DNA of 64,000 nt from Patescibacteria group bacterium (GTDB taxonomy: Bacteria > Patescibacteriota > Minisyncoccia > Phycocordibacterales > UBA9973): the NCBI GenBank assembly GCA_038078255.1, contig JBBUEH010000002.1, positions 7,534 to 71,533 of the forward strand. Reading direction: 5' to 3'. The notes under the pieces were generated by a model. That model saw only the letters and a program-made list of their open reading frames with translations. It ran no database searches and was not told the DNA's origin. The position numbers and the translations under genes are program-made. This document shows positions 7,163-59,381 of this stretch, piece by piece. Every line of letters starts with the position of its first letter. Position 1 is the first letter of the stretch.

Positions 7163-7564
7163 TTATACAATCTTACCTATTTTTACTTTTATCTCTTTTA
7201 ACTCTTCGTTCTCTATTTTACCCATAAGTCTTAATAATCTTTTTGCGTCAAAAAGTCTAACTTGCGAAAGTATTACCGTTGAATCAGAAAAAGAAATTAA
7301 TCTATGATAATATTTTCCATCTTTATTTTCATTTGAAGTTAAAGGAACTCCTAAAAATATATTATTGTTAAACTTTCTTACAATAAGAATTGGTCTTTCA
7401 AAAGTAGAATTTTTACCATCTTCTTCGTCTCCTATATTTTTACCTATTGATGTAAACCATACATCGCCTTTATGGAAATAAGCTCTTTTAGCTAAAGATA
7501 ATTGTTTTTTATTAATATTCCAATCATCATATTCTTTTTCCATATTTTTATTATCAGGAAACAA
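7163..7564 (-). CDS. MazF/PemK/EndoA-like endoribonuclease (toxin-fold) paralog 1, no cognate antitoxin gene
   Basis: Aligns to B. subtilis EndoA and E. coli MazF along its length ([31 protein letters not shown] vs [59 protein letters not shown] vs VILLEQIRTIDKQRLTDKI..). It overlaps the rpoC stop by 11 nt if the first ATG is used; the alternative start is ATG at 7543. Confidence 0.6.
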   Translation of the reverse strand: [133 protein letters not shown]

Positions 7565-10500
7565 TATTCTTACTTTTAAACCCTGTCCCAGCCGGAATTA
7601 GTCTTCCAATTATCACATTTTCTTTTAGACCTCGGAGAGAATCCACGCCACCCTTGATGGCATTTTCGATCAGCACCCGGTTAGTGTTTTGGAACGAGGC
7701 GGCAGAGAGCCAGCTTTTAGTGCGTAGTGATACTTCCGTAATGCCCAGCACCACTGTTTCGGCTTTTGCTTCTTTTCCACCTGACTGTTCAATTCTGACA
7801 TTCTCTTCTATGAGTGAAGTATTTTCAACGATATCACCGATAGAAAAATTCGTATCGCCTGCATCTTTTATTTTTCGACGAGAAAACATCTGGCGAATAA
7901 TTATTTCTGTGTGCTTTCGAGAAATCGAAGCGCTTTGTAATTCATAAACTTTATTTATTTCACGAATGATATATTCCTCAACAAATTCTTTGCCACCCCA
8001 TTTAAAAATTTCAGCAATATCAGCAGAACCATCAGTCAGAAGCTCTCCCGCTCCAACACGATCCCCTACCTTAACAATAGGCACTCTACGAAAGGCTACT
8101 GTATATTCCATCTCGTTTGGTTTACCATCAACTTTTGTATCTGATAATATTTTGATTACCTTTTCTTTCCCACCTACTCCGCCAGAAGCTGAATCTTTGG
8201 CTGTGATAGAAATAACCTCTCCGTTGGTTTCGGAAATAATTGCCGGATTTTTAGGAATTCTTCTTTCAAATATTTCTTCCACCCGAGGTAGCCCAGTGGT
8301 GATGTCTGTGCCAGCCACTCCTCCAGCATGAAAGGTGCGAAGGGTGAGCTGAGTTCCCGGCTCGCCTATCGCTTGAGCGGCAATGATCCCCACAGCTTCG
8401 CCCTGCTCCACTAGGCGATTCCGCCCCAGATCCAATCCGTAACACTGAACGCAAAGTCCATGAACAGTGTGACAAGTCAGTGGAGAACGAACAAAAACTT
8501 CTGTGAAACCCGCTTCTTCAATGTTGTATGCTTCTTCTTTGGTCACTAAAAATCCTCTCTTATAAACAGTTTTACCATTTTTGTCTTTCAGGTCTCCTGC
8601 TAAGATGCGCCCTCGAATATTTTTGGAAAGCGGAATTTCAATTCCAGAAATATTTTCTTTCGAAACAATCTTCCCTTCTTTAGTACCACAATCTTCTTCA
8701 GTAACAACCACATCCTGCGCCACATCAACCAATCTTCGGGTTAAATATCCAGCCTTGGCAGTATTGAGCGCAGTGTCAGAAGCGCCCTTTCTAGCGCCAT
8801 GAGTAATAACGAAATATTCAATCGGAGAAAGCCCTTCTTGATAACAAGGAATAATCGGAAACTCCAGTGTCCTCCCTTGGTTGTTTTGAATAAGTCCAAT
8901 CATTCCCGTCATTTGCATCAGAGAGCTCATCGTCCCTCGAGCCTTCGAAGTAAATAAATCATAAGTGGAACCGTTTTTTTCAAGCGTATTAGGTAGAACT
9001 TTCTCTAAATTTTTCTTGGTATGTGTCCAAATTTCAATAATTTTTTGATATTTTTCTTCTTCGGAAAGCAGACCTTCGTTCCACTGTGATATTATATCTT
9101 CTTCCAGTTTTTTGCCCTGCGCTATAATTTTGGGTTTCTCGGGGGGCACCGAAACATTATCCAACCCCCAGGTTGTACCAGAAACAGTTGAATATTTAAA
9201 ACCAAAGGCCTTAATCTTGTCTAAAATAGCAGGGGTATCGTCTATGCCATATTGCATAATGAGCTCATCTAGGAGCATGGACAATCTACCTTGGGTCATT
9301 TCATCATTCACATAGAAAAAATTAGAGGGTAGAATACTGTTGAAAAGTAATTTTCCGACAGAGGTGTCAAAAATTTTTCCATTAAATTTTTTGTATTTAT
9401 CTGAATCTGTGGCTAGCACTTTTATCTTCGCTCGAAGAGATACCACTCCGTATTCGTAAGCCAGAATTGCTGTATTGGGATTCGAAAAGTATTTGCCTTC
9501 ACCCTGTTCTCCATCAATATCTTTCGTCATCCAATAAGAACCAAGCACGATGTCCATACTGGGATGCACTATCGGATCGCCATTTTGGGGCTTGAGCAGA
9601 TTCTTATTTGATGCCATCAAATCCTTGGCTTCTCGTTGCGCTTCTTCAAGGAGAGGCACATAGACTGCCATTTGGTCTCCATCAAAGTCAGCATTGAAAG
9701 CCTGACATACTAGGGGGTGAACCTGAATAGCATTTCCTTCAATCAAAATAGGATTAAAAGCCTGGATACCCAGACGATGCAGAGTCGGCGCGCGGTTCAA
9801 AAGAACGAATTTACCTTTAATCACTTCTTCTAAAATGGCCCAGATTTCTCCTCCTCTCTCTTCTATCAATTTATTGGCACCCCGAATATTGAAGGCCAGT
9901 TCGGCGTGTAAAATTTTCGAAATTATAAATGGTTTGAAAAGTTCTAGCGCCATGTGTTTAGGCAATCCGCATTGATTTAATTTAAGTTCGGGGCCAACCA
10001 CAATAACTGAACGACCAGAATAGTCCACTCGTTTCCCGAGCAAATTCTGACGGAAGAGTCCCTGTTTCGATTTCAAGTTATCGGAAAGAGATTTCAACGG
10101 TCGTTTTTGAGACTGACTCATAGCGGCATTATCATTTTGTTTGGCAATAGAGTTGTCAATCAATGCATCCACTGCTTCTTGAATAATTCTTTTTTCATTT
10201 CGCAGAATAACATCCGGAGCGTTAATTTCTTTCAACTTCTTTAAACGATTATTTCTGTTGATCACTCGACGATAAAGATCGTTTAAGTCAGAGGTTGCAT
10301 GTCTCCCCCCGTCTAGCGCCACCATCGGACGAAGGACGGGCGGAATAACTGGAATAGTGGTTAAGAACATCCACTCGGGACGAATTCCCGCATAATTCAT
10401 CGCCCGAAGAAGCGAAAGCCTTTTTTGCAATTTTTCTTTTTCAGCCATACTGGCCTTCTCTAGCATTTTTTCGGTGTGAACTTTTAATTTGTTTAAATCA

Positions 10501-11245: not shown

Positions 11246-11719
11246 TCATTGGTTTATACTATCCGTATTAGTGGCTTCGGCCTCCGAGAAAGCCCCCGCA
11301 AGGGGGTTTTCGATTTTAAGGAGATTTTGCAACATTATAATTACTTCTTTAAAATCTGCTTCAGATATAGAGCCTACTTTTCTTAACAATCTTTTTGTGC
11401 TTATTGCTTTTACTTGAGACAAAACAACCCAGGATTTTAACTCTGTATGATTTAGCTTAAAGTAATATTTATTATTTTTCCCTTGAGTTGTAAGTGGTAA
11501 CGCCCACACCATATCTGCATTAAATTTTTTTATAATTAACATTGGTCTTTCAAAGTTTTCATGTTTCCCATCTGATTCCACACCAATATTAAGCCCAGCG
11601 CTACACCACCATATTTCCCGAGCATAAAAGAAAAGCTCTGTGTTTACGCTTTTCGCATCTACAAACTTTTTCTCTATATTCCATTTATCAAAATCTTTTT
11701 TATATTCCATGGAATTCAC
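11246..11719 (-). CDS. MazF/PemK/EndoA-like endoribonuclease paralog 2 (GTG or ATG-11710 start), C-terminally extended by read-through into the hairpin element
   Basis: Clear paralog of 7163-7564 (W.I.KK, NIG.E.DGK..FERP.LI..KFN, PLT, KYY, VILSQV, KRLLR). Its C-terminal 20 aa (ENPLAGAFSEAEATNTD) are translated from the hairpin repeat at 11268-11330. Confidence 0.6.
   Translation of the reverse strand: MNSMEYKKDFDKWNIEKKFVDAKSVNTELFFYAREIWWCSAGLNIGVESDGKHENFERPMLIIKKFNADMVWALPLTTQGKNNKYYFKLNHTELKSWVVLSQVKAISTKRLLRKVGSISEADFKEVIIMLQNLLKIENPLAGAFSEAEATNTDSINQ
11286..11312. repeat. second copy of the GAGAAAGCCCCC-GCAA-GGGGGTTTTCG hairpin element (inside the 3' end of ORF 11246-11719)
   Basis: About 90% identical to 7118-7170 and in the same position relative to the MazF-like paralog. 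Confidence 0.55.
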
Positions 11720-11721
11720 TG

Positions 11722-12357
11722 TTATTTTGTAAATTTAAAAGTGGAAAGAACATCATCAAAATCTTGCCAAACTCGTTCGGTCTTACTATCTCCGCCAGTA
11801 TCCAACAAAAAGATCACTTTATTATTTTCAATAATTACTGTTTTCCCATAACCCAATCCCTCCCATGAATAACTAATGGCCTTATGTTCAGCCAAGGTTT
11901 TATTTTCAAAATCAGCAAAACCATCTCCATTATAATTTGAAAAACTTCTATTGTATTCATCTTCTGCCCAATCTATGAGTGAAAGTTGCTTAGAATTATC
12001 CCACACGCCTATACTTATACTTGATAAAGGACCATATCCACCCTCTCCAGGACCGATTGTTGTACTATCAAGGATCACTGTAAACAAGCTTCCTCGAACT
12101 GTAGACTTGTCAAAAATCCTAATTGTATAAACTGGTGGATAACTGAACTCAAATTTGTATTGATCATTTCTATATATTTGCCAAGTTGATGTTACATCCT
12201 GTCGTGGAAAATAAACTTTATTTATCGTACAATCACGTGTGTGTTCGCCAAAGAAAGGTGCATTGCAGGTTCCTCGAACACCCCAAACTCCAAGATACAC
12301 CAGAGCTAGTAAACCAAGTATTTGCATGTAAGGAATATTTTTAAAATAATTTTTCAT
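11722..12357 (-). CDS. secreted/membrane-anchored hypothetical protein ending ...VLSTFKFTK, inserted between rpoB and rpoC
   Basis: N-terminal signal/transmembrane segment (MKNYFKNIPYMQILGLLALVYLGVWGV). The C-terminal nonapeptide and downstream junction are shared with 6792-7079; an NGDGF motif is also shared. Confidence 0.45.
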   Translation of the reverse strand: MKNYFKNIPYMQILGLLALVYLGVWGVRGTCNAPFFGEHTRDCTINKVYFPRQDVTSTWQIYRNDQYKFEFSYPPVYTIRIFDKSTVRGSLFTVILDSTTIGPGEGGYGPLSSISIGVWDNSKQLSLIDWAEDEYNRSFSNYNGDGFADFENKTLAEHKAISYSWEGLGYGKTVIIENNKVIFLLDTGGDSKTERVWQDFDDVLSTFKFTK

Positions 12358-12367
12358 ATTTTTTCAA

Positions 12368-15300
12368 TTAATTTTTCCCTGATTTTCTAAGATCGACATC
12401 CAGCGCCAAGCCCCGCAGATAATTTAGAAGCACATTGAACGAGGCGGGAGAATTCGGCGGTCGAATCGTTTCATTTTTAATAATGGAATCAAAGGTTGCT
12501 GATCGGCCTTGAATGTCATCTGATTTAATCGTCAGCATTTCACGCAAAGTATAAGCCGCCCCATAACCTTCGAGCGCCCAGACTTCCATTTCTCCAAATC
12601 TCTGTCCTCCGCCTTGAGCTTTTCCGCCCAAGGGTTGCTGGGTAATGAGAGAGTAAGGACCAATCGAACGCATATGAATTTTATCCTCTACCATGTGATG
12701 CAGTTTAAGCATGTACATATATCCTACTGCGACATCTTGCTCGAAAGCCTCCCCCGTCCGTCCATCAAAGAGTTTCACTTTTCCAGATTCTGGCAGTCCC
12801 GCTTTTACTAATTCTTCTTTTATTTCTTCGTGCTTCGCTCCCAGAAAGGGCGGAACGATAGCCTGATAACCCAAACTATTCGCCGCCATCCCAAGGTGCA
12901 TTTCTAAAATTTGCCCCAAGTTCATCCGAGAAGGAACACCAAGGGGTGAGAGAATAATATCAACCGGTGTGCCGTCAGCAGTGTAAGGCATGTCTTCTTC
13001 TGGTAAAATCGTGGAGATCACCCCCTTGTTCCCATGTCGTCCAGAGAGCTTGTCTCCGACTGAAATATTTCTAATCTGCGCCACTTCAATCACGATTTTT
13101 TTTATAATTCCCGCTTCCAGCGAATGTCCCAGATCACGAGAAAAGATCTTTACCCCAATAATTCTTCCTCGTTTGCCATGTTCCATTCGAAGCGAAGTAT
13201 CTTTCACATCCCGAGCTTTCTCCGCAAAGATTGAACGAAGCAATCGTTCTTCGGGAGTCAGTTCCGTTTCACCTTTAGGAGTAATCTTGCCCACCAAAAT
13301 ATCATTTTCCCGAACCTCTGCTCCAATACGAACGACGCCATCTTCATCCAGATCTTTCAATTTTAATTCTCCGACATTCGGTATATCTCGAGTAGTAATT
13401 TCAGGTCCCAACTTTGTATCCCGAACGACGGAAGTAAATTCTTCAACATAAACAGAAGTGAATTTGCTCTTTTTAACCAGTCGTTCCGAAACAATGATCG
13501 CATCTTCGTAAGTTGATCCAGACCAAGACAAAAAAGCCACAAAAATATTCTGACCCAAGGAAATTTGTCCACCGACTGTACTGCTAGTGTCTGCTAAGAC
13601 GGCCCCTTTCTTTATTTTGTCGCCGACATCCACAGAAGGTCGTTGATGAAACACAGAAAAGTTGTTATTCCGTATAAAATTTACTAAAGAATAAGTCTTT
13701 TCCGTTTTTCCTTTCACCACAATTTTTTTCGCATCTAAATACGAGACCACACCATCTTCTTCTGCTAAAATCAATCGCCCAGAATCTCGGGAAGCTAACT
13801 CTTCCATCCCTGTCGCCACCAAGGGCGCTTCGGGGAGAACACAAGGCACCGCTTGCTTCTGCATGTTTGATCCCATTAGAGCGCGATTGGCATTGTTGTG
13901 TTCTAAAAACGGAATCATCGAGGTCGCAATAGAGAAAGCTTGGTTGGTCGCCACATCAATAAAGTCCACTTCTTCCCGAGCGACAGTACCCGGTTCTGTT
14001 TTAATTCGAGCTTCTACTTTTTCCTCGGTTATTTTGCCATTTTCATCATAGGGAACCCCCGCATGCGCAATATTATATTTTTCTTCCTCCAGCGCATTCA
14101 GATACACCACCTCTCCAGTCAATTTCCCATTCTTCACCTTGATATAAGGAGTTTCAATAATTCCAAATTCATTTATTTTGGCATAAGTAGATAAGTGCAG
14201 AATCAGTCCAATGTTCGGACCTTCAGGAGTATGAATCGGACACACTCTTCCATAGTGCGAAGGATGCACATCCCGAACTTCGAGCCCTGCTCGTTCCCGA
14301 GTCAATCCGCCGGGGCCGAGCGCCGAGAGCTGTCTAATGTGCTCTGTTTCCACCAACACATTTTCTTGATTCATAAATTGAGAAAGCTGGTTGGTAGTGA
14401 AAAATTCTTTGATACGAGCTTGGAGTGGTCGCTGGTTGATAATAGCGATAGGCATCGCTGTATCCACATCAATAATAGACATTCTGTCTTGAACATTTCT
14501 CTTGATCTGCATCATACCCGTACGGACTTTCTGTTGCAGTATTTCACCCACAAATCGCACCCGCCTCTGACCCAAATGGTCAATGTCGTCGCTCTTTGCT
14601 CCTGGAGTATTGTTCAAAGAAATAATGTGCATGATGACAGTGGCTAGATCTTCTTTAGAAATAGTACGACGAAGAAGAGCTTGTTCATCCATGGGCTTAT
14701 TAAATCGCTGATTAAATCTAAATCTACCAACCGGAGAAAGGTCATATCGCTCAGCGGTAAACAAAGAATCAATAAATTCTTTAGCATTATCAGCTGTGGC
14801 CATATCTCCATCTCTGAGACGCTTATATATTTCTATATAGGCATCGTTTATATTTTTTAGTCCATCTTTCGCCAAACAAATCTTTATTGTTTCTTCAAAA
14901 TTCGAACTTAATTCTGTTTTACCACTGAATGCCTTTAAAATAGCTTCATCCGTCTCATAACCCATCGCCCGCAGGAGCGCAGTTGCGGGGAATTTTCTTT
15001 TTTTATCTATTCTGATATAAATTGCCCCATCAGATTCGGACTCTATCTCAATCCAAACTCCCCGAGCTGGAATAATTTTTGCTCCAAAATATCTGTTCCC
15101 CTTACTTTCGGATTCAGTAAAGAAAACTCCGAAGCTTCTCGCTAGTTGTGGAACGATGACCCGCTCTACGCCATTGATGATAAAAGTCCCATGCGAAGTC
15201 ATTAAAGGAAAATCCGACATGAAAATTTCTTGCTCCTTCACTGTGCCTAAGATTTTATTAGTCAATTTTACCCGCGCTTTCAACTGCCCCTGATAGGAGA

Positions 15301-15547
15301 GCTTATTTATTTTTGCATTATTTTCGTCTTGCTTAGACTCACCTAGTGTGAAAGAAGTAAATTCCAGTTGAAATTTCTTGGAAGAATAATCACTAATGGG
15401 AGAAAATTCTTTTAAAACTTCGCCGATGCCGATCTCGGTCAGCCACTTGAAACTCTTGACTTGAGCTTCAATTAAATTAGGAAATTCCACGAGGGGCTTT
15501 TTATACCTCCCAAAATATTTCTTCGGACGCTTTGTATCTATATGCAT
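12368..15547 (-). CDS. rpoB: DNA-directed RNA polymerase subunit beta
   Basis: GDKLSGRHGNKGVIS and other conserved RpoB blocks; 1059 aa. Confidence 0.95.
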   Translation of the reverse strand: MHIDTKRPKKYFGRYKKPLVEFPNLIEAQVKSFKWLTEIGIGEVLKEFSPISDYSSKKFQLEFTSFTLGESKQDENNAKINKLSYQGQLKARVKLTNKILGTVKEQEIFMSDFPLMTSHGTFIINGVERVIVPQLARSFGVFFTESESKGNRYFGAKIIPARGVWIEIESESDGAIYIRIDKKRKFPATALLRAMGYETDEAILKAFSGKTELSSNFEETIKICLAKDGLKNINDAYIEIYKRLRDGDMATADNAKEFIDSLFTAERYDLSPVGRFRFNQRFNKPMDEQALLRRTISKEDLATVIMHIISLNNTPGAKSDDIDHLGQRRVRFVGEILQQKVRTGMMQIKRNVQDRMSIIDVDTAMPIAIINQRPLQARIKEFFTTNQLSQFMNQENVLVETEHIRQLSALGPGGLTRERAGLEVRDVHPSHYGRVCPIHTPEGPNIGLILHLSTYAKINEFGIIETPYIKVKNGKLTGEVVYLNALEEEKYNIAHAGVPYDENGKITEEKVEARIKTEPGTVAREEVDFIDVATNQAFSIATSMIPFLEHNNANRALMGSNMQKQAVPCVLPEAPLVATGMEELASRDSGRLILAEEDGVVSYLDAKKIVVKGKTEKTYSLVNFIRNNNFSVFHQRPSVDVGDKIKKGAVLADTSSTVGGQISLGQNIFVAFLSWSGSTYEDAIIVSERLVKKSKFTSVYVEEFTSVVRDTKLGPEITTRDIPNVGELKLKDLDEDGVVRIGAEVRENDILVGKITPKGETELTPEERLLRSIFAEKARDVKDTSLRMEHGKRGRIIGVKIFSRDLGHSLEAGIIKKIVIEVAQIRNISVGDKLSGRHGNKGVISTILPEEDMPYTADGTPVDIILSPLGVPSRMNLGQILEMHLGMAANSLGYQAIVPPFLGAKHEEIKEELVKAGLPESGKVKLFDGRTGEAFEQDVAVGYMYMLKLHHMVEDKIHMRSIGPYSLITQQPLGGKAQGGGQRFGEMEVWALEGYGAAYTLREMLTIKSDDIQGRSATFDSIIKNETIRPPNSPASFNVLLNYLRGLALDVDLRKSGKN

Positions 15548-15674
15548 AAATTAAAAAAGGGCCAATTATTTTATAGCCAGCTTATAATTAATAAGGAGAT
15601 TGCATCCGATACTCAATCAATGAATCTCAACCAGCCTACTCTATTTACTATTTTTTGTCAACTAATTTTGTGAA

Positions 15675-16325
15675 TTAAGTTTTTGGTTGATATTTTTCCA
15701 GCCGCCAATCTAAAGATAATTTTTCAGCTAATTCTGGATCGACTGGATGGCGTTCAAATAAATTTTTATCCAAATTGAAGTTGGAATCATATTGAATAAG
15801 TGCACCTTGTGGATGCAAAACTCTCTCCATTTCCTCCACTACACTATCCGCATATTCTTTTTGCATTACAGATTCTAGCTGACTAGCAAAAATACTGACA
15901 CTTTTATCTGGCAACCTTCTTAAAAAACTCAACGCATCCGCCTTCACTGCCGTACGGGCAATTTGAGATAATAAATAGTGTGAAGTAGCCTGTTCAGCTT
16001 CTTCTAGGAATTGTTTTAGATTATCCACAAAATCATATGGTTCAACTCCTATGTACGCTTTTGCTCCAGAAAGTAAGACTACTTGGTAACCTGTTAATAA
16101 CTCGCCAGGCCCAATTTCCACAACAATTTGCCCCTTGAAAGGTTTAAAGAACTCTTGCAACTCAGGACTTTTACGCAACCCCTCCCTAATTTGAGCAGAC
16201 ACATTAGCCGGTTTGAGTGATCTGTATAATTCTTTTGGTTCCAATGGAAGAGGAGGTCTTATGTTTGGAATAATCGCCTCAACAGCAACAACACCAGATT
16301 CATTTGTTATCTTTTTTCCTTCCAT
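15675..16325 (-). CDS. hypothetical protein, possibly class I SAM-dependent methyltransferase-like
   Basis: [12 protein letters not shown] resembles methyltransferase motif I; there is no other recognisable signature. Confidence 0.3.
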
Positions 16326-16507
16326 TGGTTTATTTTAGCATGATTCCCAGAAAGTAAAACTTTCGGAACTTTATAATTTTTGCCACGGTATTTTAGAACT
16401 TCCGGTCGAGTGTAAACTTCGCTAGTAGATATGCGTTCTTCTTCTAGAGATTCATATCTGCCCAGGACTCCCGGAATCTGGCGTGAAATTGAGTCTATCA
16501 GAACCAT
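16307..16507 (-). pseudogene. orphan 3'-terminal fragment of trmD (diverged duplicate of the 3' end of the intact trmD at 19250-19951)
   Basis: Protein [55 protein letters not shown] matches the TrmD C-terminus. It is about 88% nucleotide identical over about 195 nt to 19283-19476. Confidence 0.75.
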
Positions 16508-16709
16508 CGCTGGAAGTTCGCCACCGGTACAAGGTGGGTCTGGAAACCTTAAACGCTTCTTTGGTTGCTAGATCCCCATACTTCTCCCAGAAAGCTAGAA
16601 CCCGGCACCTTTCTTTTGCTTGTTCGGTAATCATATACCGAAATCGTAGCACTCTTTGCCAGATGGTGATGAAGCCCTTGGTTCCTTTAAATTTGTTAAA
16701 TTGTCGCAT
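16452..16709 (-). pseudogene. transposase N-terminal helix-turn-helix remnant (IS3/IS481-like) running out of frame into the trmD fragment
   Basis: [26 protein letters not shown] is a typical transposase HTH. There is no catalytic domain and the frame collides with the trmD fragment. Confidence 0.45.
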
Positions 16710-16775
16710 TCTCCTTTTTGATTAAAGGAGTCTCATATGTATCTGAACTTATGCAATGCAGACTGGGGATTAAAT

Positions 16776-16813
16776 AATTACCTAACTTTTCCGACCAGTA
16801 GAATTGGGTAATT
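16776..16813. repeat. hairpin repeat AATTACCTAA-N18-TTGGGTAATT (copy 1 of 2; copy 2 at 18103-18140)
   Basis: 10-bp inverted repeat arms. The two copies share about 36 of 38 nt and both sit at 3' ends of island genes, so they are probably terminators. Confidence 0.5.
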
Positions 16814-17407
16814 TTATATTTTCACTGACCGGAATAAATCTATGATCGACACCACATATTTATCTACTTCTTCCATATATAAAACTTTTTCAGATAAAGA
16901 TAATTGGTGAAAATTTTTAGATTTAATAAAAATAGATAATTTTTCCTGTAAAGTTTTAATTTCCGATTTTAATTGATTATCTTCAGTAAACTCAATAATA
17001 GCTCCCACATAATTGAAAATAGACTGAAGGCGATTTACCCGCAATTTACTTTTTTCTCTTAATTGATAATACACTTTATAATCATCAGGGGCTTCTGTTT
17101 CTAGTCTTTCAGAAAAAGCTTTTCTTGATTCATGATCTTTGTCAAAACCATCAATTAAAATAACTGATTGGTGATTTAAAATTTCTAACAGACCTTCTAT
17201 GTATCTCAATATTTGCACTGGTGACTGAGGTATTGTAAATTGTGTGAACTTAGGATTAAAATCTTTTTCATAGATCACAATGTTCCTATCAGCAATTTTC
17301 ACTGTTTCCTTTAGCTTATAGCCACAAGTTTCCATGGTTTGTTCAAACTCACTCTTTGGTTGTGCTTCTCCTGGGTTCATATTTCTATTATAACTCTTTA
17401 TTTCCAC
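16814..17407 (-). CDS. hypothetical protein (island cargo)
   Basis: 197-aa ORF with good coding statistics and no recognisable domain. Confidence 0.4.
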   Translation of the reverse strand: MEIKSYNRNMNPGEAQPKSEFEQTMETCGYKLKETVKIADRNIVIYEKDFNPKFTQFTIPQSPVQILRYIEGLLEILNHQSVILIDGFDKDHESRKAFSERLETEAPDDYKVYYQLREKSKLRVNRLQSIFNYVGAIIEFTEDNQLKSEIKTLQEKLSIFIKSKNFHQLSLSEKVLYMEEVDKYVVSIIDLFRSVKI

Positions 17408-17444
17408 CTATTCCACGCATAGATAATACTGTGGATAACTATCC

Positions 17445-17473
17445 TTGCATATAATTTGTACATTTTGTACAAT
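17445..17473 (+). promoter_or_regulatory. putative sigma-70 promoter (TTGCAT -17- TACAAT) with two TGTACA palindromic operator half-sites overlapping the spacer and -10; leaderless start at 17482
   Basis: TTGCAT at 17445-17450 and TACAAT at 17468-17473. TGTACA occurs at 17457-17462 and 17466-17471, a typical toxin-antitoxin autoregulation layout. Confidence 0.4.
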
Positions 17474-17481
17474 ATATACAT

Positions 17482-17730
17482 ATGACCACAAAAACATTAT
17501 CTACAACAGAAGCAAGGGAAAGGATAAGCGACTTGGTAAATATCGTGTCTACGAGTCGTAAATCTATCGTCATCGGTCGTAGAAATGTACCCGAAGTGGT
17601 GCTTATTCCCTTTCCTGCATTTTGGAATGGTAAACTATCTGAAATAACAAACATAAACTCATATTCTAAAAGTTTTGACTTTCTAAAAAACGAACCTGAA
17701 ATTTATTCTATTAAAGATATTAAAAAATAG
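17482..17730 (+). CDS. Phd/YefM-family antitoxin
   Basis: TLSTTEARERISDLVNIVSTSRKSIVIGRRNVPEVVLIPF matches the Phd/YefM N-terminal fold; the stop is 2 nt before the toxin start. Confidence 0.65.
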   Translation: MTTKTLSTTEARERISDLVNIVSTSRKSIVIGRRNVPEVVLIPFPAFWNGKLSEITNINSYSKSFDFLKNEPEIYSIKDIKK

Positions 17731-17732
17731 AA

Positions 17733-18074
17733 ATGTATAAAATTGGAGATATAATCTTGACACCTTTCCCATTTACAGATCTTTCAGGAAACAAAGTTCG
17801 TCCTACCCTAATACTAGGCACGCAACCAGGTGGCGATGATGTTACAGTTTGTTTTATTTCTTCTAATTTAGAAAATAAAATTCATAAATTTAATATTTTA
17901 ATAGATTTAAAAGAAAAAAATTTTAGTAAAACTGGATTAAAATTAAAATCAGTTATTAAAGTAACGAAAATCGCCACTCTGGACAAAATAGTTATTCTGG
18001 GAAAAATCGGAGAATTAGATAATGAAACTATGAATAAGGTAGGGAAAGTTTTAAAAACTTATTTAAATCTATAA
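17733..18074 (+). CDS. PemK/MazF-family toxin (mRNA interferase)
   Basis: GDIILTPFPFTDLSGNKVRPTLILG...VTVCFISSN is the PemK/MazF signature. It is translationally coupled to the upstream antitoxin. Confidence 0.7.
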   Translation: MYKIGDIILTPFPFTDLSGNKVRPTLILGTQPGGDDVTVCFISSNLENKIHKFNILIDLKEKNFSKTGLKLKSVIKVTKIATLDKIVILGKIGELDNETMNKVGKVLKTYLNL

Positions 18075-18102
18075 TGCTTATATATCTTAATTTGGTCAAA
18101 CT

Positions 18103-18140
18103 AATTACCTAACTTTTCCAGTCAGCAGAATTAGGTAATT
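18103..18140. repeat. hairpin repeat AATTACCTAA-N18-TTAGGTAATT (copy 2), between convergent genes
   Basis: See 16776-16813. Confidence 0.5.
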
Positions 18141-19219
18141 TAAAATTTCATTTCTTTTAATTTATTTTTGTATAACTCCCAGATTTTTTCCTCAGTCTTC
18201 CCGTATTCATCTTTGTTAAAATGTCTCCAGTTGTTTGATTTGAGTTCTTGTTGGAATTGATTGAAGTCCAAAGATAATAAATAAGCCTTGCGTTTTTTAA
18301 AGAAATCGGTAGGCAAGCTTCCGCTTTTTAACAAATCCCAACATTCTTGATTGACAAGACCATAAGTATTACTAAACATCATCTGTTGCAGAAATAAAAT
18401 TTTTCTTTGAATAATTTCGTCAGTTTTACACCTCTTCCAGACATCGCTTGAATTATTCATCATCGCAGAAAATAGTGACGCCCTATCTTCTAAAGTACTT
18501 GTCTGAGCATATATGTCGATAAATCCTTTTTTGTTTTCCACAAGTTTATCAGTAGCATAAGCACCCGACTCATCTAAACCTAGCCATTCCAAGCGTCGAT
18601 TTTTATCTAAAAGACGATTGTCAAGCACATGAAAAAATTCATGATCAAAAGTTTTATTAAAAGGTTGTTTTTCATTCCAACCGAAAATTCTGCTTTTATT
18701 TAAGGGTCCTTCTGAAATTTCTATAAATATTTCAGACCCCTCATCACATGTTATTCCTTCTACATTACCACCACCATCGAGTAGATTATCAGCAATAAAA
18801 ATTGACCTAATATTCATCCTTCTAACAAATTCAAGGGGATATCTAGAAAATCCTTGGATTATATAATCCAGCGCTCTGTCATATTTTGATAAAGAATTTT
18901 TTTCATCTATACCGGAAATTTCCTGACCTAAGATTTTTCTTAATGACTGTTCTAATTCTTCTAAATCATTGAATTTTGATTTAACTTTTATCCCATACAT
19001 TTCCTTTATTAAAGAAGTTTTCTTTTCTATTTGTTCTAGAAGTGACTTTTCAAGAAATGTATCTTTGGCTTTGTCAACTGCCGAAGGCCCACCAACACCA
19101 AGAATCCCAGTCCCTGCTGCGACAGCCCCGGCTTTCAAAAAACCACGTCTAGAAATCAATGGCTTTTTAGGTTCTTTTTCTTCTTCAGAATCATATTTTA
19201 CTCCGAATAATTCTGGCAT
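18140..19219 (-). CDS. putative Tat-exported zinc metallopeptidase-like protein (HExxH)
   Basis: N-terminal twin-arginine motif SRRGFLKAGAVAAGTGILG and an HEFFH (HExxH) motif; no close family recognised. Confidence 0.4.
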   Translation of the reverse strand: MPELFGVKYDSEEEKEPKKPLISRRGFLKAGAVAAGTGILGVGGPSAVDKAKDTFLEKSLLEQIEKKTSLIKEMYGIKVKSKFNDLEELEQSLRKILGQEISGIDEKNSLSKYDRALDYIIQGFSRYPLEFVRRMNIRSIFIADNLLDGGGNVEGITCDEGSEIFIEISEGPLNKSRIFGWNEKQPFNKTFDHEFFHVLDNRLLDKNRRLEWLGLDESGAYATDKLVENKKGFIDIYAQTSTLEDRASLFSAMMNNSSDVWKRCKTDEIIQRKILFLQQMMFSNTYGLVNQECWDLLKSGSLPTDFFKKRKAYLLSLDFNQFQQELKSNNWRHFNKDEYGKTEEKIWELYKNKLKEMKF

Positions 19220-19249
19220 TTTTTTATTATACTATAAGTCTGTTAATTT

Positions 19250-19951
19250 TCATCCTCGCTTCTTCCACGCATCGATAAGTTTATGATTCCCAGAGAGTAA
19301 AACTTTCGGTACTTTATAATTCTTACCCCCATATTTTAGAACTTCCGGTCGAGTGTAAACTTCGCTACTTGAGACTCTTTCTTCTTCTAGAGATTCATAT
19401 TTACCCAAGACTCCGGGAATTTGACGCGAGATGCAATCGATCAGAACCATCGCTGGAAGCTCGCCACCAGTCAGCACATAATCCCCAATTGAAATTTCTT
19501 CCAGCCCTCCAGGGGCGAGTAAACCTTTGAGAATTTTCCCTACTCTTGCATCTATGCCTTCATATCTGCCAGAAATTAAAATAATATCCGTGTATTTCTG
19601 CTTCACCAACTTTTTCGCATAAGTTGTGTCGAACTTTTTACCAGAGGGAGAAAATAAAATAATCTTTATTGTCCCTTTCTTAGCTTTCTTGTCCGCCATA
19701 GCTTTAGCGACGGCAGAAAGCAGTGGCTCGGCTTTCATCACCATTCCGGGTCCGCCACCGTAGGGCTTGTCATCTACTGGACGATACCCATTATCTTTCA
19801 GCGCCCCGCCACGGCGGGCAGGCTTTATAAAATCACGAGGATTATAGAAATTAAAATTTATTAATTTATTCTTCACCGCCCGCCCGATAATAGACTCTTT
19901 GAGATAAGAATCGAACATCTCCGGAAAAATTGTAATAATATGAAATTTCAT
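19250..19951 (-). CDS. trmD: tRNA (guanine37-N1)-methyltransferase TrmD
   Basis: SPOUT fold; conserved GRYEGIDARV.. and C-terminal [15 protein letters not shown]...[10 protein letters not shown]. Confidence 0.9.
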   Translation of the reverse strand: MKFHIITIFPEMFDSYLKESIIGRAVKNKLINFNFYNPRDFIKPARRGGALKDNGYRPVDDKPYGGGPGMVMKAEPLLSAVAKAMADKKAKKGTIKIILFSPSGKKFDTTYAKKLVKQKYTDIILISGRYEGIDARVGKILKGLLAPGGLEEISIGDYVLTGGELPAMVLIDCISRQIPGVLGKYESLEEERVSSSEVYTRPEVLKYGGKNYKVPKVLLSGNHKLIDAWKKRG

Positions 19952-20055: not shown

Positions 20056-20658
20056 CTAAACTTGCTTTTTTATCTGCATTTTCCAGTTATTTATCTCAAT
20101 AAGATTGACCTTACCCCTATTTTCATCTATCAACTTTTTAAGTTTTGTAGAAAATCTTTTTGTATTTATTCCTGGTTTCCTAACACCAGCATTAGAAGAC
20201 ACCACATAGACTTTTGTCCCTTTTTCTACTACTTTTCTTATTAGATATTCAAAATCACCATCACCTGTAAAAATAAGAAATTCTTTGTCGATTCCTGCTT
20301 CTTCCATACAATCCACAGTTAAGTCTACATCGCAATTAGATTTTCTATTGTAACCCATATCAACAACTTCGATATTATCTTTTCCACATTCAACACATTT
20401 TATGGAAATAGTTTTATCTGATTTTTTATAAGCAAAAACTGTTTTTGCCCTTACGATGCAACCATTCTTTGATAGAGTGTCAAATTCTTTAGCGGTTTCT
20501 GTATCCCCTTCATCAATACCTGAATAAAAGAAAATTTTCTCACAGTCCCATTTTTCTTTTAGATATTTACAGAGTTTATGCCAATCAACAATAAAACCCA
20601 ATAACTTTTGTGTAGTAGTGGCTGTGTTCTGAACATCTATAAAAGCGTATCTTTTCAT
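20056..20658 (-). CDS. NYN-domain (LabA-like PIN) putative RNase
   Basis: MKRYAFIDVQN..., DVDLTVD and FLIFTGDGDFEYLI motifs. The ORF is trimmed to the internal Met at 20658; the upstream track extension is implausible. Confidence 0.65.
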   Translation of the reverse strand: MKRYAFIDVQNTATTTQKLLGFIVDWHKLCKYLKEKWDCEKIFFYSGIDEGDTETAKEFDTLSKNGCIVRAKTVFAYKKSDKTISIKCVECGKDNIEVVDMGYNRKSNCDVDLTVDCMEEAGIDKEFLIFTGDGDFEYLIRKVVEKGTKVYVVSSNAGVRKPGINTKRFSTKLKKLIDENRGKVNLIEINNWKMQIKKQV

Positions 20659-20695
20659 ATAAAAATGATAGCACAAATTCAGGCACAAGCAAAAA

Positions 20696-20721
20696 ATCTC
20701 TGAGAACAAGTTCTCAGAGAT
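20696..20721 (-). terminator. Rho-independent terminator (minus strand): TCTCTGAGAAC-TTG-TTCTCAGAGA followed by TTTTTT
   Basis: 11-bp perfect stem with a U-run on the minus strand, downstream of the rpsP-KH operon and upstream of the NYN gene. Confidence 0.6.
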
Positions 20722-20775
20722 AAATTTGATAAAAAAACAAAAGAACATTTTGTTGCGGCCCCGTTAGGTCAGGTT

Positions 20776-58927: not shown

Positions 58928-59069
58928 CCCAGTATTATGTAAAGAGACAGCCTAAGCTGTCTCTTTAAAAACGAACGAGCATTTTTAGTGACCTCCTGTC
59001 ATAAAGAATTTGACTTGAGATTAATAATGGCGACCTTTGATATTATAGCACAAAAATAATGGAAGCAAG

Positions 59070-59158
59070 CGGAGCCGGGCGGATTCGAACCGCCGAGGGG
59101 TTTTGAAGCCCCTGCCTCTTTAGCAAAGAGGTACGTTAGACCACTCTGACACGGCTCC
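59070..59158 (-). tRNA. tRNA-Ser (anticodon GCU), class II
   Basis: Acceptor GGAGCCG/CGGCTCC; anticodon arm CCTCT-TTGCTAA-AGAGG; long variable arm; T-arm GGCGG-TTCGAAT-CCGCC; discriminator G; no encoded CCA. Confidence 0.8.
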
Positions 59159-59233: not shown

Positions 59234-59320
59234 GGATGAGTGGGTGAGTGGCTTAAACCAGCGGTTTACTAAACCGCCGTCCCTTTAAAAGGACCGTGAG
59301 TTCGAATCTCACCTCATCCG
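59234..59320 (+). tRNA. class II (long-variable-arm, G73) tRNA with atypical anticodon loop UUACUAA (apparent anticodon ACU)
   Basis: Acceptor GGATGAG/CTCATCC; 3-bp D-stem; anticodon stem GCGGT/ACCGC; variable arm GTCC-CTTTAAAA-GGAC; T-arm GTGAG-TTCGAAT-CTCAC. Confidence 0.55.
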
Positions 59321-59381
59321 CCTTCGGTTTGCAATAGCGAACCTTTAATGTAATGAAATCAATTATAGAAAATAAAAAAAT

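Follow-up and report, generated by a model that had tools for sequence, protein, structure and literature searches.

How did a second 3′ end of the tRNA methyltransferase gene trmD come to lie downstream of the intact gene, behind a broken transposase gene and ahead of rpoB? The question is raised by a 64-kb stretch of DNA from the genome of a groundwater Nomurabacteria, which belongs to the candidate phyla radiation (CPR); this whole stretch is called the window, and coordinates are those of the window unless a comparison locus or contig (L number) is named. Read in the direction of trmD, the window presents trmD, a gene for a HExxH protein, a palindrome, an inverted Phd-MazF gene pair, a gene for a 197-aa protein (p197), a second palindrome, an open reading frame (ORF) of 85 aa, the orphan trmD end, a gene for a 216-aa protein (p216) and rpoB (12368..15547). 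The original prediction saw in this arrangement a decayed integrative element that had supplied trmD with a replacement 3′ end. What follows does support a segment that was acquired horizontally and inserted, with a diverged copy of the trmD end as its boundary. As for the agent, the trmD-rpoB spacer is probably a hotspot flanked by core genes and growing by homology-anchored illegitimate recombination, and not a self-mobile element. Comparisons were made with the 80 closest species-representative loci, all of them from Candidatus Nomurabacteria / Paceibacterota (CPR) metagenome-assembled genomes (MAGs).

The intact trmD gene (19250..19951, minus strand) encodes 233 aa and matches the NCBIfam TrmD equivalog with 219.6 bits and Pfam tRNA_m1G_MT with 125.8 bits. 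Its last 222 nt (19250-19471, minus) form the right-hand copy of the repeat. The left-hand copy, the orphan (16307..16528, minus), is made of 73 codons and a stop codon in an intact reading frame; it amounts to 66-73 codons matching positions 143-207 of the TrmD model, and its last 19 nt overlap the start of the p216 gene. A repeat search returned a single direct repeat, 16340-16528 versus 19283-19471, 189 nt long with 86% identity (162/189) and a spacing of 2943. The copies are collinear, without indels, down to both stop codons (16307-16528 versus 19250-19471, 177 of 222 positions identical), with identical runs of 8-36 nt between them. Just outside the repeat, identity drops to background, 7/32 upstream and 8/27 downstream. 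About 2.7 kb of DNA lie between the copies. This alignment confirms the duplicate in direct orientation that had been proposed; the coordinates given for its left part (16329-16520) were about 8-11 nt off, and the 88% identity reported was slightly high.

Third positions hold 22 of the 33 core differences between the two trmD ends, dN/dS is 0.10-0.15 for a dS of 0.75-0.9, and neither indels nor internal stops are present. Since this divergence is mostly synonymous, both ends would have evolved as parts of working genes in different lineages. Direct orientation and collinearity without indels would also be expected if the trmD end had been duplicated in tandem at its own site, and if the copies had then diverged and genes had later been inserted between them. 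However, such dS and dN/dS values point to two functional genes under purifying selection, which an orphan fragment would not have been, and they exclude an old duplication in place; moreover, the upstream boundary of the orphan is a junction internal to an insertion sequence (IS), described below. We consider this origin highly improbable. The stranded fragment appears to be xenologous, diverged while part of a working gene, and not a copy made in place and since decayed. The two copies are 86% identical to each other, and either is at most 84% identical to any species representative. Being closer to each other than to any representative, they suggest that the partner lineage was a fairly close, unsampled relative.

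The orphan begins inside the remnant of an IS481-like element (16520..16755, minus), recognised by DNA homology to three elements, L089, L090 and L091. The remnant keeps the left terminus TGCATAAGTTCAGA (16742-16755, minus) and codons 1-64 of a DDE transposase gene, broken off inside the helix-turn-helix (HTH) region (..SRPTLYRW), at residue 64 of about 350. This transposase N-terminus makes up the first 64 residues of the 85-aa ORF (16452..16709), whose tail reads the orphan trmD out of frame; close homologs of the ORF run on as ...SRPTLFRWQKALKENKGKLEALNKKSTAPK. Full-length relatives of the transposase, of about 350 aa, carry HTH_32, rve and rve_3 in a profile search, an IS481-like architecture. 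DNA homology to the three elements extends from the IS terminus to ...TTGTACCGGTGGC (also given as ..TACCGGTGGC), trmD homology starts at ACCGGTGGCGAA, and 9 nt are common to both. This GC-rich microhomology, ACCGGTGGC (16520..16528, minus), joins transposase codon 64 to trmD codon 163. The parental forms would be TACCGGTGGCAAGG, as in the IS gene of L090, and ACTGGTGGCGAG, as in the right trmD copy. A short (3-10 nt), GC-rich microhomology joining unrelated sequences, which is one criterion of homology-facilitated illegitimate recombination (HFIR), is thus found here with parents deduced from homologs. The junction bears the signature of illegitimate recombination at a microhomology, and would be neither an att core nor an event mediated by IS ends.

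No other piece of this IS is found elsewhere in the window. A complete IS481-family element is also missing, with neither an intact rve transposase nor two terminal inverted repeats. The likeness of 16520-16755 to IS481-family elements lies in the left terminus and the first 64 codons; it differs from them in that only about 236 nt are left, without the catalytic domain and without the right end. The IS did not make the 222-nt duplication; it is a passive substrate of recombination. Another CPR genome has a remnant of the same IS481-like family in L089 (5170-7100): together with two unknown genes and a gene for a MazE-like antitoxin, it is inserted in the S10 ribosomal-protein operon, between rplD (L4) and rplW (L23). 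This is a further case of accessory genes wedged into a core operon.

An assembly chimera, joining two co-occurring strains at the trmD repeat, might produce a similar picture, and some Hainich assemblies do break in the repeat, as with contig L003, whose end lies in the orphan, and L008, which begins just past it. Nevertheless, the same arrangement is found in the NCBI MAG GCA_964364195.1 and in contigs of several Hainich groundwater samples that were assembled separately, and an overlap of 9 nt is far below assembler k-mer sizes. Four of the recurring contigs span the IS/orphan junction; the contig from well H51 covers the interior of the segment only. Because the arrangement recurs across separate assemblies, we give practically no weight to an artefact.

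Relatives share the gene order RNase R, S16, KH, trmD, rpoB. Both trmD and rpoB were visible in 59 loci, of which 28 have an empty spacer (98-368 nt) and 31 an occupied one (620-4002 nt). In an empty site, the trmD stop codon is followed by a hairpin, often present and lineage-specific, by AATCC(C/A)CA, by TTGACA-N17-TAnnnT and by a conserved leader (GATTCATTGATTGAGT...). Occupied sites contain unrelated genes, mostly co-oriented with trmD, which include IS200-like Y1 transposases (REP-associated tyrosine transposases, RAYT) with inverted repetitive extragenic palindromic (REP) hairpins, PaaX/Cas2-like proteins, an EEP nuclease, GMP reductase, reverse transcriptase, membrane proteins and many singletons. 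The reverse-transcriptase gene of L064 (7412-8395; RVT_1, 87.5 bits) is one such occupant. No integrase was found among the cargo genes examined in the 31 occupied spacers. From this spread of empty and occupied sites, we conclude that the spacer is a hotspot across the clade, and that the ancestral state was trmD directly followed by rpoB, not trmD followed by the p216 gene. The genes of the segment are not core genes, as had been presumed, the spacer being empty in those 28 loci. Conserved anchors flanking a variable region, S16, KH and trmD on one side and rpoB on the other, another criterion of HFIR, were observed over the 59 loci.

Upstream of rpoB, the window retains a promoter-like region (15595..15676, minus) comprising the motif AATTCACAAAA (15666-15676), TTGACA (15656-15661), TAGGCT (15633-15638) and, following them, the leader GATTCATTGATTGAGTATCGGATGCAATCTCC (15595-15626). 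The TTGACA-N17-TAnnnT element and the leader are conserved upstream of rpoB in more than 45 relatives (e.g. L012 8760-8830), and the element probably acts as a promoter. A generic promoter and terminator scan gave nothing above background, so that the promoter calls rest on cross-species conservation. The conserved rpoB leader, GATTCATTGATTGAGTATCGGATGCAATCTC, exists in short and long versions and is matched by no Rfam family; in Paceibacteria, it may be a regulatory leader of rpoBC that has yet to be described. In L041, the rpoB promoter (AATCCNCAG...TTGACAAAAAA) is present on both sides of a PaaX-like cargo gene (8739-8770 and 9520-9550), a flank duplication of another type within this hotspot.

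Pieces of the spacer are also present inside the segment. A 38-nt palindrome occurs only twice in the 64 kb (16776-16813 and 18103-18140, 0 expected in shuffles), with a fold of -9.5 to -11.4 kcal/mol (z about -2). The copy at 18103..18140 abuts the stop codon of the HExxH gene, and next to it comes a promoter-like remnant, TTGACC-N17-CATTAT (18099-18071, minus). The other copy forms, with TAATCCCCAG (16763-16772), a unit at 16763..16813 that is followed by the IS terminus at the place where relatives have TTGACA. Outside the window strain, the palindrome was found only in L013, directly 3′ of the trmD stop codon, and the copy at 18103..18140 also aligns to that L013 hairpin. Window 16827->16764 matches L013 3120-3183 at 83%; this part of L013 consists of the trmD stop codon, the hairpin and ATCCCCA, with the rpoB -35 box next, and its window counterpart is the hairpin and ATCCCCAG after p197. 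Judging from this match, the first hairpin copy and TAATCCCCAG are a displaced unit of trmD terminator and rpoB-promoter upstream sequence. A further scar is TTATCCACAG (17429..17438, minus), a copy of a motif normally located 8-12 nt upstream of the rpoB -35 box, and homology with L010 breaks right at this point. These hairpin and promoter-motif scars indicate that the inserted DNA was assembled from trmD-rpoB spacers of related chromosomes, and not from the backbone of a phage, a plasmid or an integrative and conjugative element (ICE). In agreement with this, MazF is the only part of the segment to give a signal in PHROGs or PADLOC, and no DNA match to a phage or plasmid was found.

Other roles for these short sequences were considered and rejected. 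The 38-nt hairpin as a REP, a miniature inverted-repeat transposable element (MITE) or an attC-like mobile repeat was ruled out, given its two copies, the L013 terminator and a fold weakly better than that of shuffles. An integron-like cassette array was discarded as well: there is no integrase, and the hairpin is present twice here and once in L013 as a trmD terminator. AATCC(C/A)CA is not a recombination site; in empty sites it is part of the promoter region of rpoB, and in most of the relatives' multi-gene hotspots there is a single copy.

The 3.7-kb trmD-rpoB spacer of the window combines, as a mosaic, four or more units of cargo, among them the HExxH protein, Phd-MazF, p197 and p216; all four of these occur in the trmD-rpoB spacer of some other genome. 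The HExxH gene (18140..19219, minus) encodes a putative secreted zinc metallopeptidase/lipoprotein of 359 aa, with the motif HEFFH and a twin-arginine translocation (TAT) signal (TIGR01409, 23.3 bits, cutoff 16.7). Its matches to Peptidase_Mx1, LIC13305 lipoprotein and TIGR04549 are below threshold, and a homolog 38% identical lies directly 3′ of trmD in L047. The second unit, in inverse orientation (plus strand), is formed by a Phd/YefM antitoxin gene (17482..17730) and a PemK/MazF toxin gene (17733..18074), 2 nt apart, preceded by the palindromic, operator-like TTGTACAAAATGTACAA (17456-17472). The toxin matches PemK_toxin with 59.3 bits (cutoff 23.1) as well as a MazF-like PHROG; the antitoxin matches TIGR01552 with 23.1 bits (cutoff 20.8) and Pfam with 28.6, just below the 29.8 cutoff. 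Adjacency and family matches designate a predicted type II toxin-antitoxin (TA) pair, Phd/YefM-MazF(PemK). The same pair is found in the spacer of L010 (79-84% aa and 82% nt identity), with the trmD terminator and the rpoB promoter on its flanks. The third unit (16814..17407, minus) encodes p197, a hypothetical protein of 188 aa if counted from the ATG of the gene caller, with no family match in Pfam/NCBIfam, PADLOC or PHROGs; a homolog 36% identical is present in the same spacer of L052. The fourth (15675..16325, minus) encodes p216, which has a class-I S-adenosylmethionine (SAM) methyltransferase-like motif, VVDIGPG, and a weak Methyltransf_11 match. The G-x-G motif is kept in the alignment of this rare family (10 homologs). 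The p216 gene is absent from all 80 species-representative loci. Homologs were found directly 3′ of an intact trmD in L093/L094, L097/L098 and L099, and the uninterrupted order of trmD and p216 that had been looked for in relatives does exist. The contents described between the copies, namely the fusion of transposase HTH and orphan, the 197-aa gene, Phd-MazF, the TAT HExxH protein and the two 38-nt palindromes, were all recovered.

Stranded trmD ends are also present in other species. A search with a trmD 3′-end profile detected them in eight more (L016, L023, L028, L030, L045, L046, L084 and L093/L094). All eight reach the trmD stop codon, the reading frame is kept in all except L046, and they are 66-96% identical to the resident intact trmD. 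Their 5′ ends fall at profile positions 127-178, versus 3 in the window; boundaries that vary in this way speak against a single att site. In L016 and L084, the orphan placed after the RAYT-REP unit keeps the canonical trmD terminus, and the intact gene ends inside the REP; the orphan is there clearly the displaced native end. RAYT genes were seen at the trmD stop codon in L009 (8690-9410), L016 (8650-9390), L029 (8655-9385) and L084 (8755-9465), flanked by the inverted REP-type hairpin GCTAGGCCTTGCCTAGC and its complement, with a different palindrome in L084. On either side of the RAYT units of L016 and L084 lies a copy of 55-70 nt of the trmD end; in L084 the two copies are 96% identical.

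These data bear directly on the integrative element of the original prediction. An integrase island inserted in the 3′ part of trmD would have supplied 19250-19471 and displaced the native end to 16307-16528; the integrase would then have been lost, and the IS would have landed by attR. Such islands are classically recognised by a gene 3′ end that is repeated directly, one copy of the gene being intact, and the identical runs of 8-36 nt between the copies could serve as a core. The orphan is contiguous with p216, a gene that follows trmD in other genomes, and the orphans of the RAYT-bearing L016 and L084 are displaced native ends. However, the attR-side boundary lies inside the transposase ORF, which would require a later IS insertion and a deletion ending exactly at the att core. 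As the prediction had stated, no intact integrase remains; Pfam tables list none in the region or within about 10 kb, and none was seen among the examined cargo of the 31 occupied hotspots. Rfam and tRNA scans gave nothing near the region, the nearest tRNA being more than 20 kb off. The mobile-element modules expected of a phage, ICE or plasmid are missing from the cargo: the defence and prophage search of its ORFs (PHROGs and PADLOC) yielded only MazF and a NYN match, nothing beyond MazF within the segment, and no similarity to phage or plasmid DNA was found. What the segment does hold is fragments of the trmD-rpoB locus; orphan boundaries are not the same from genome to genome, and trmD as an integration site is not reported in the literature searched. 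Target-derived flanking repeats and an intact target gene are present, and a recombinase gene and defined att arms, with one crossover point shared by independent insertions, are not; as these last two are defining features, an integrase-driven island is not supported. We consider a decayed integrative element unlikely, in view of the IS-internal junction, the absence of a mobile backbone, the scars derived from the locus and the variable orphan starts.

Homology-anchored illegitimate recombination would account for these observations as follows. A segment from a related lineage, about 86% identical in trmD, would recombine with the resident locus and generate the orphan trmD end. One end would pair by homology, either in trmD or in rpoB and its promoter. 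The other would join illegitimately at the 9-nt ACCGGTGGC, connecting codon 64 of an IS481-like transposase gene, resident or incoming, to codon 163 of trmD. The outcome would be a 3′-end displacement, in which one complete trmD stays and the tail of the other genome is stranded downstream with the gene that overlaps it. Repeated events would stack cargo and leave terminator hairpin, rpoB-promoter motif and trmD-end pieces between the units. Accessory genes would in this manner be exchanged between related genomes at the spacer by the cell's own recombination machinery. Two precursors are predicted: one is trmD-HExxH-hairpin-MazF/Phd-p197-hairpin-AATCCCCAG, followed by a full-length IS481-like element by the rpoB promoter, and the other a trmD with the tail of the orphan, with the p216 gene and the rpoB promoter immediately behind it. 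The recombination pathway, the direction of transfer and the route of DNA entry (transformation or other) are what we infer from the scars.

Which trmD end is native, and hence the direction of transfer, is a tie between two readings. One possibility is that a resident trmD-p216-rpoB locus received everything from 19471 to 16529, and this has support because the orphans of L016 and L084 are displaced native ends. The other possibility is that a resident locus resembling that of L010 (trmD-hairpin-TA-rpoB promoter) received the orphan and p216; this is favoured to some degree by the promoter variant AATTCACA, an unusual one found in the window and in L010 only. Arrangements resembling each parent are found in other species, trmD-p216 in L093, L097 and L099, and trmD, hairpin, TA pair and rpoB promoter in L010; no strain-level precursor was found. 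Both copies are 70-84% identical in nucleotides to all 80 relatives and rank them almost alike (Spearman 0.90). The right copy is the closer one to 103 of 118 TrmD homologs, by a margin of about 2.5 residues out of 73 and in a set picked with a query containing that copy. The TrmD tail reads NHAKI(N/D) in L097/L098 and L099, like the orphan, and NHKLID in L093/L094, like the intact copy (NHKLIDAWKKRG).

Several points weigh against the scenario of illegitimate recombination. The parental sequences at the microhomology are deduced from an IS homolog of 89% identity and from the other trmD copy. Species-level relatives, with at most 84% nucleotide identity in the repeat, are too distant to discriminate the native copy. 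Neither a sister strain with an empty site nor a donor was found, all close matches being the same strain: exact-protein look-ups of TrmD and p216 returned only this strain, as did a protein-guided scan with the HExxH protein (well H51), and an orphan-specific exact 28-mer had no match in the metagenome collection. A candidate alternative allele, P0028 (100% identity over 90% of the query), was rejected as a 1x-coverage contig with frameshifts. Finally, the most conserved block of trmD, from profile position 145 to 161, contains the 5′ ends of 6 of the 9 orphans. This cluster may reflect a preferred recombination site, or else the limit at which diverged homology is detectable.

The same junction could also have been made in a donor. 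Excision at the microhomology would there release a circle that encodes no recombinase but bears the cargo, the IS stub and a segment from the 3′ part of trmD, and this circle would insert in Campbell fashion by a single RecA-dependent crossover within the roughly 220 nt of homology. Insertion of this kind would regenerate flanking direct repeats, and the circle could re-excise and spread. It yields exactly the structure observed, and accounts for the recurrent duplications of 39-98 nt (aligned) around single genes, such as the 96% pair at the L084 RAYT-REP. Against it, a single crossover in 190 nt at 86% identity would be inefficient, searches of the collections turned up no circular junction sequence, and the copies display no obvious chimeric pattern, at a poor resolution. 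We hold insertion of a circle to be about as unlikely as a decayed integrative element. A more ambitious version would make the trmD 3′ end a dedicated capture site for small cassettes in Paceibacteria, in the form of circles with no recombinase or with one acting in trans. Each circle would carry a piece of trmD tail, insert in the conserved block and stack between trmD and rpoB, its cargo being co-transcribed with core genes. If true, this would explain the orphans in nine species, the clustering of 6 of their 9 5′ ends and the duplication flanking RAYT-REP, and the site would in effect acquire genes as an integron does, with no integron integrase. It is a speculative and, to our mind, improbable proposal.

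Small insertions were also noticed elsewhere in the same string of genes. A gene with a NYN domain (20056-20748, minus; Pfam 59.1 bits) sits between the KH-domain gene and trmD, which are adjacent in most of the 80 relatives; a NYN homolog (57%) occupies that position only in L022. The same string of core genes seems to have here a second, small site of insertion. Between rpoB and rpoC lie a 211-aa gene of unknown function (11722-12357, minus) and a PemK/MazF-family toxin gene (11246-11719, minus), and another PemK-family gene is located directly 3′ of rpoC (7163-7564, minus). Together with the MazF gene between the trmD copies, three MazF/PemK genes are thus found within 12 kb of the RNA polymerase genes. 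Further away, two divergent tRNA-Ser genes stand 75 nt apart (59069-59158, minus, and 59234-59322, plus); Rfam confirms that both are tRNAs, and ACT, an unusual anticodon, is assigned to one of them by ARAGORN.

The locus corrects a tempting misannotation, as a duplicated 3′ end, a TA pair and a transposase stub together look like a dead integrative island. It provides a sequence-level example of how ultra-small CPR genomes gain accessory genes inside the rigid core string S16-KH-trmD-rpoB-rpoC. The trmD-rpoB spacer is also a variable marker locus across Nomurabacteria/Paceibacteria, which could serve for strain typing and for finding lineage-specific genes.

Three kinds of known systems invite comparison. 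With integrase islands at gene 3′ ends, the locus has in common a flanking direct repeat, an intact target gene, a TA pair and an IS remnant; it differs from them in the lack of a recombinase, a boundary inside the IS transposase ORF, variable orphan boundaries, and an insert that comes from the same locus of related chromosomes. In hotspots without mobile elements, genes are gained and lost through recombination in the core genes on either side (Oliveira et al. 2017, PMC5635113). There as here, one interval between two core genes concentrates gene turnover, and many occupied sites are devoid of integrases and transposases. The model proposed for them is replacement of cargo by clean double homologous crossovers, whereas here accretion would proceed by one homologous and one illegitimate join, in Patescibacteria, which lie outside that survey. 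The closest precedent is that of the C-terminal or 3′-end displacement arrays attributed to HFIR at Rhs, contact-dependent inhibition (CDI) and Vibrio cholerae type VI secretion system (T6SS) effector-immunity loci (PMC5361080, which refers for HFIR to de Vries & Wackernagel 2002, Prudhomme et al. 2002 and Meier & Wackernagel 2003). A conserved anchor gene, an incoming module beside it, no integrase, a stranded 3′ end in the same orientation with its following gene, a short GC-rich microhomology and arrays built by repetition are common to both. Here, however, the anchor is a housekeeping tRNA methyltransferase gene, with rpoB opposite, in a CPR genome, where the precedents are polymorphic toxin loci; the cargo is of many kinds (peptidase, TA pair, methyltransferase-like, RAYT, PaaX-like and others), and the pathway is read from sequence scars only. 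Since hotspots without mobile elements, HFIR and 3′-end displacement are already established in other bacteria, the advance is incremental. What is new is an example of this known kind of hotspot, with 3′-end displacement scars, at a pair of housekeeping genes in the CPR.

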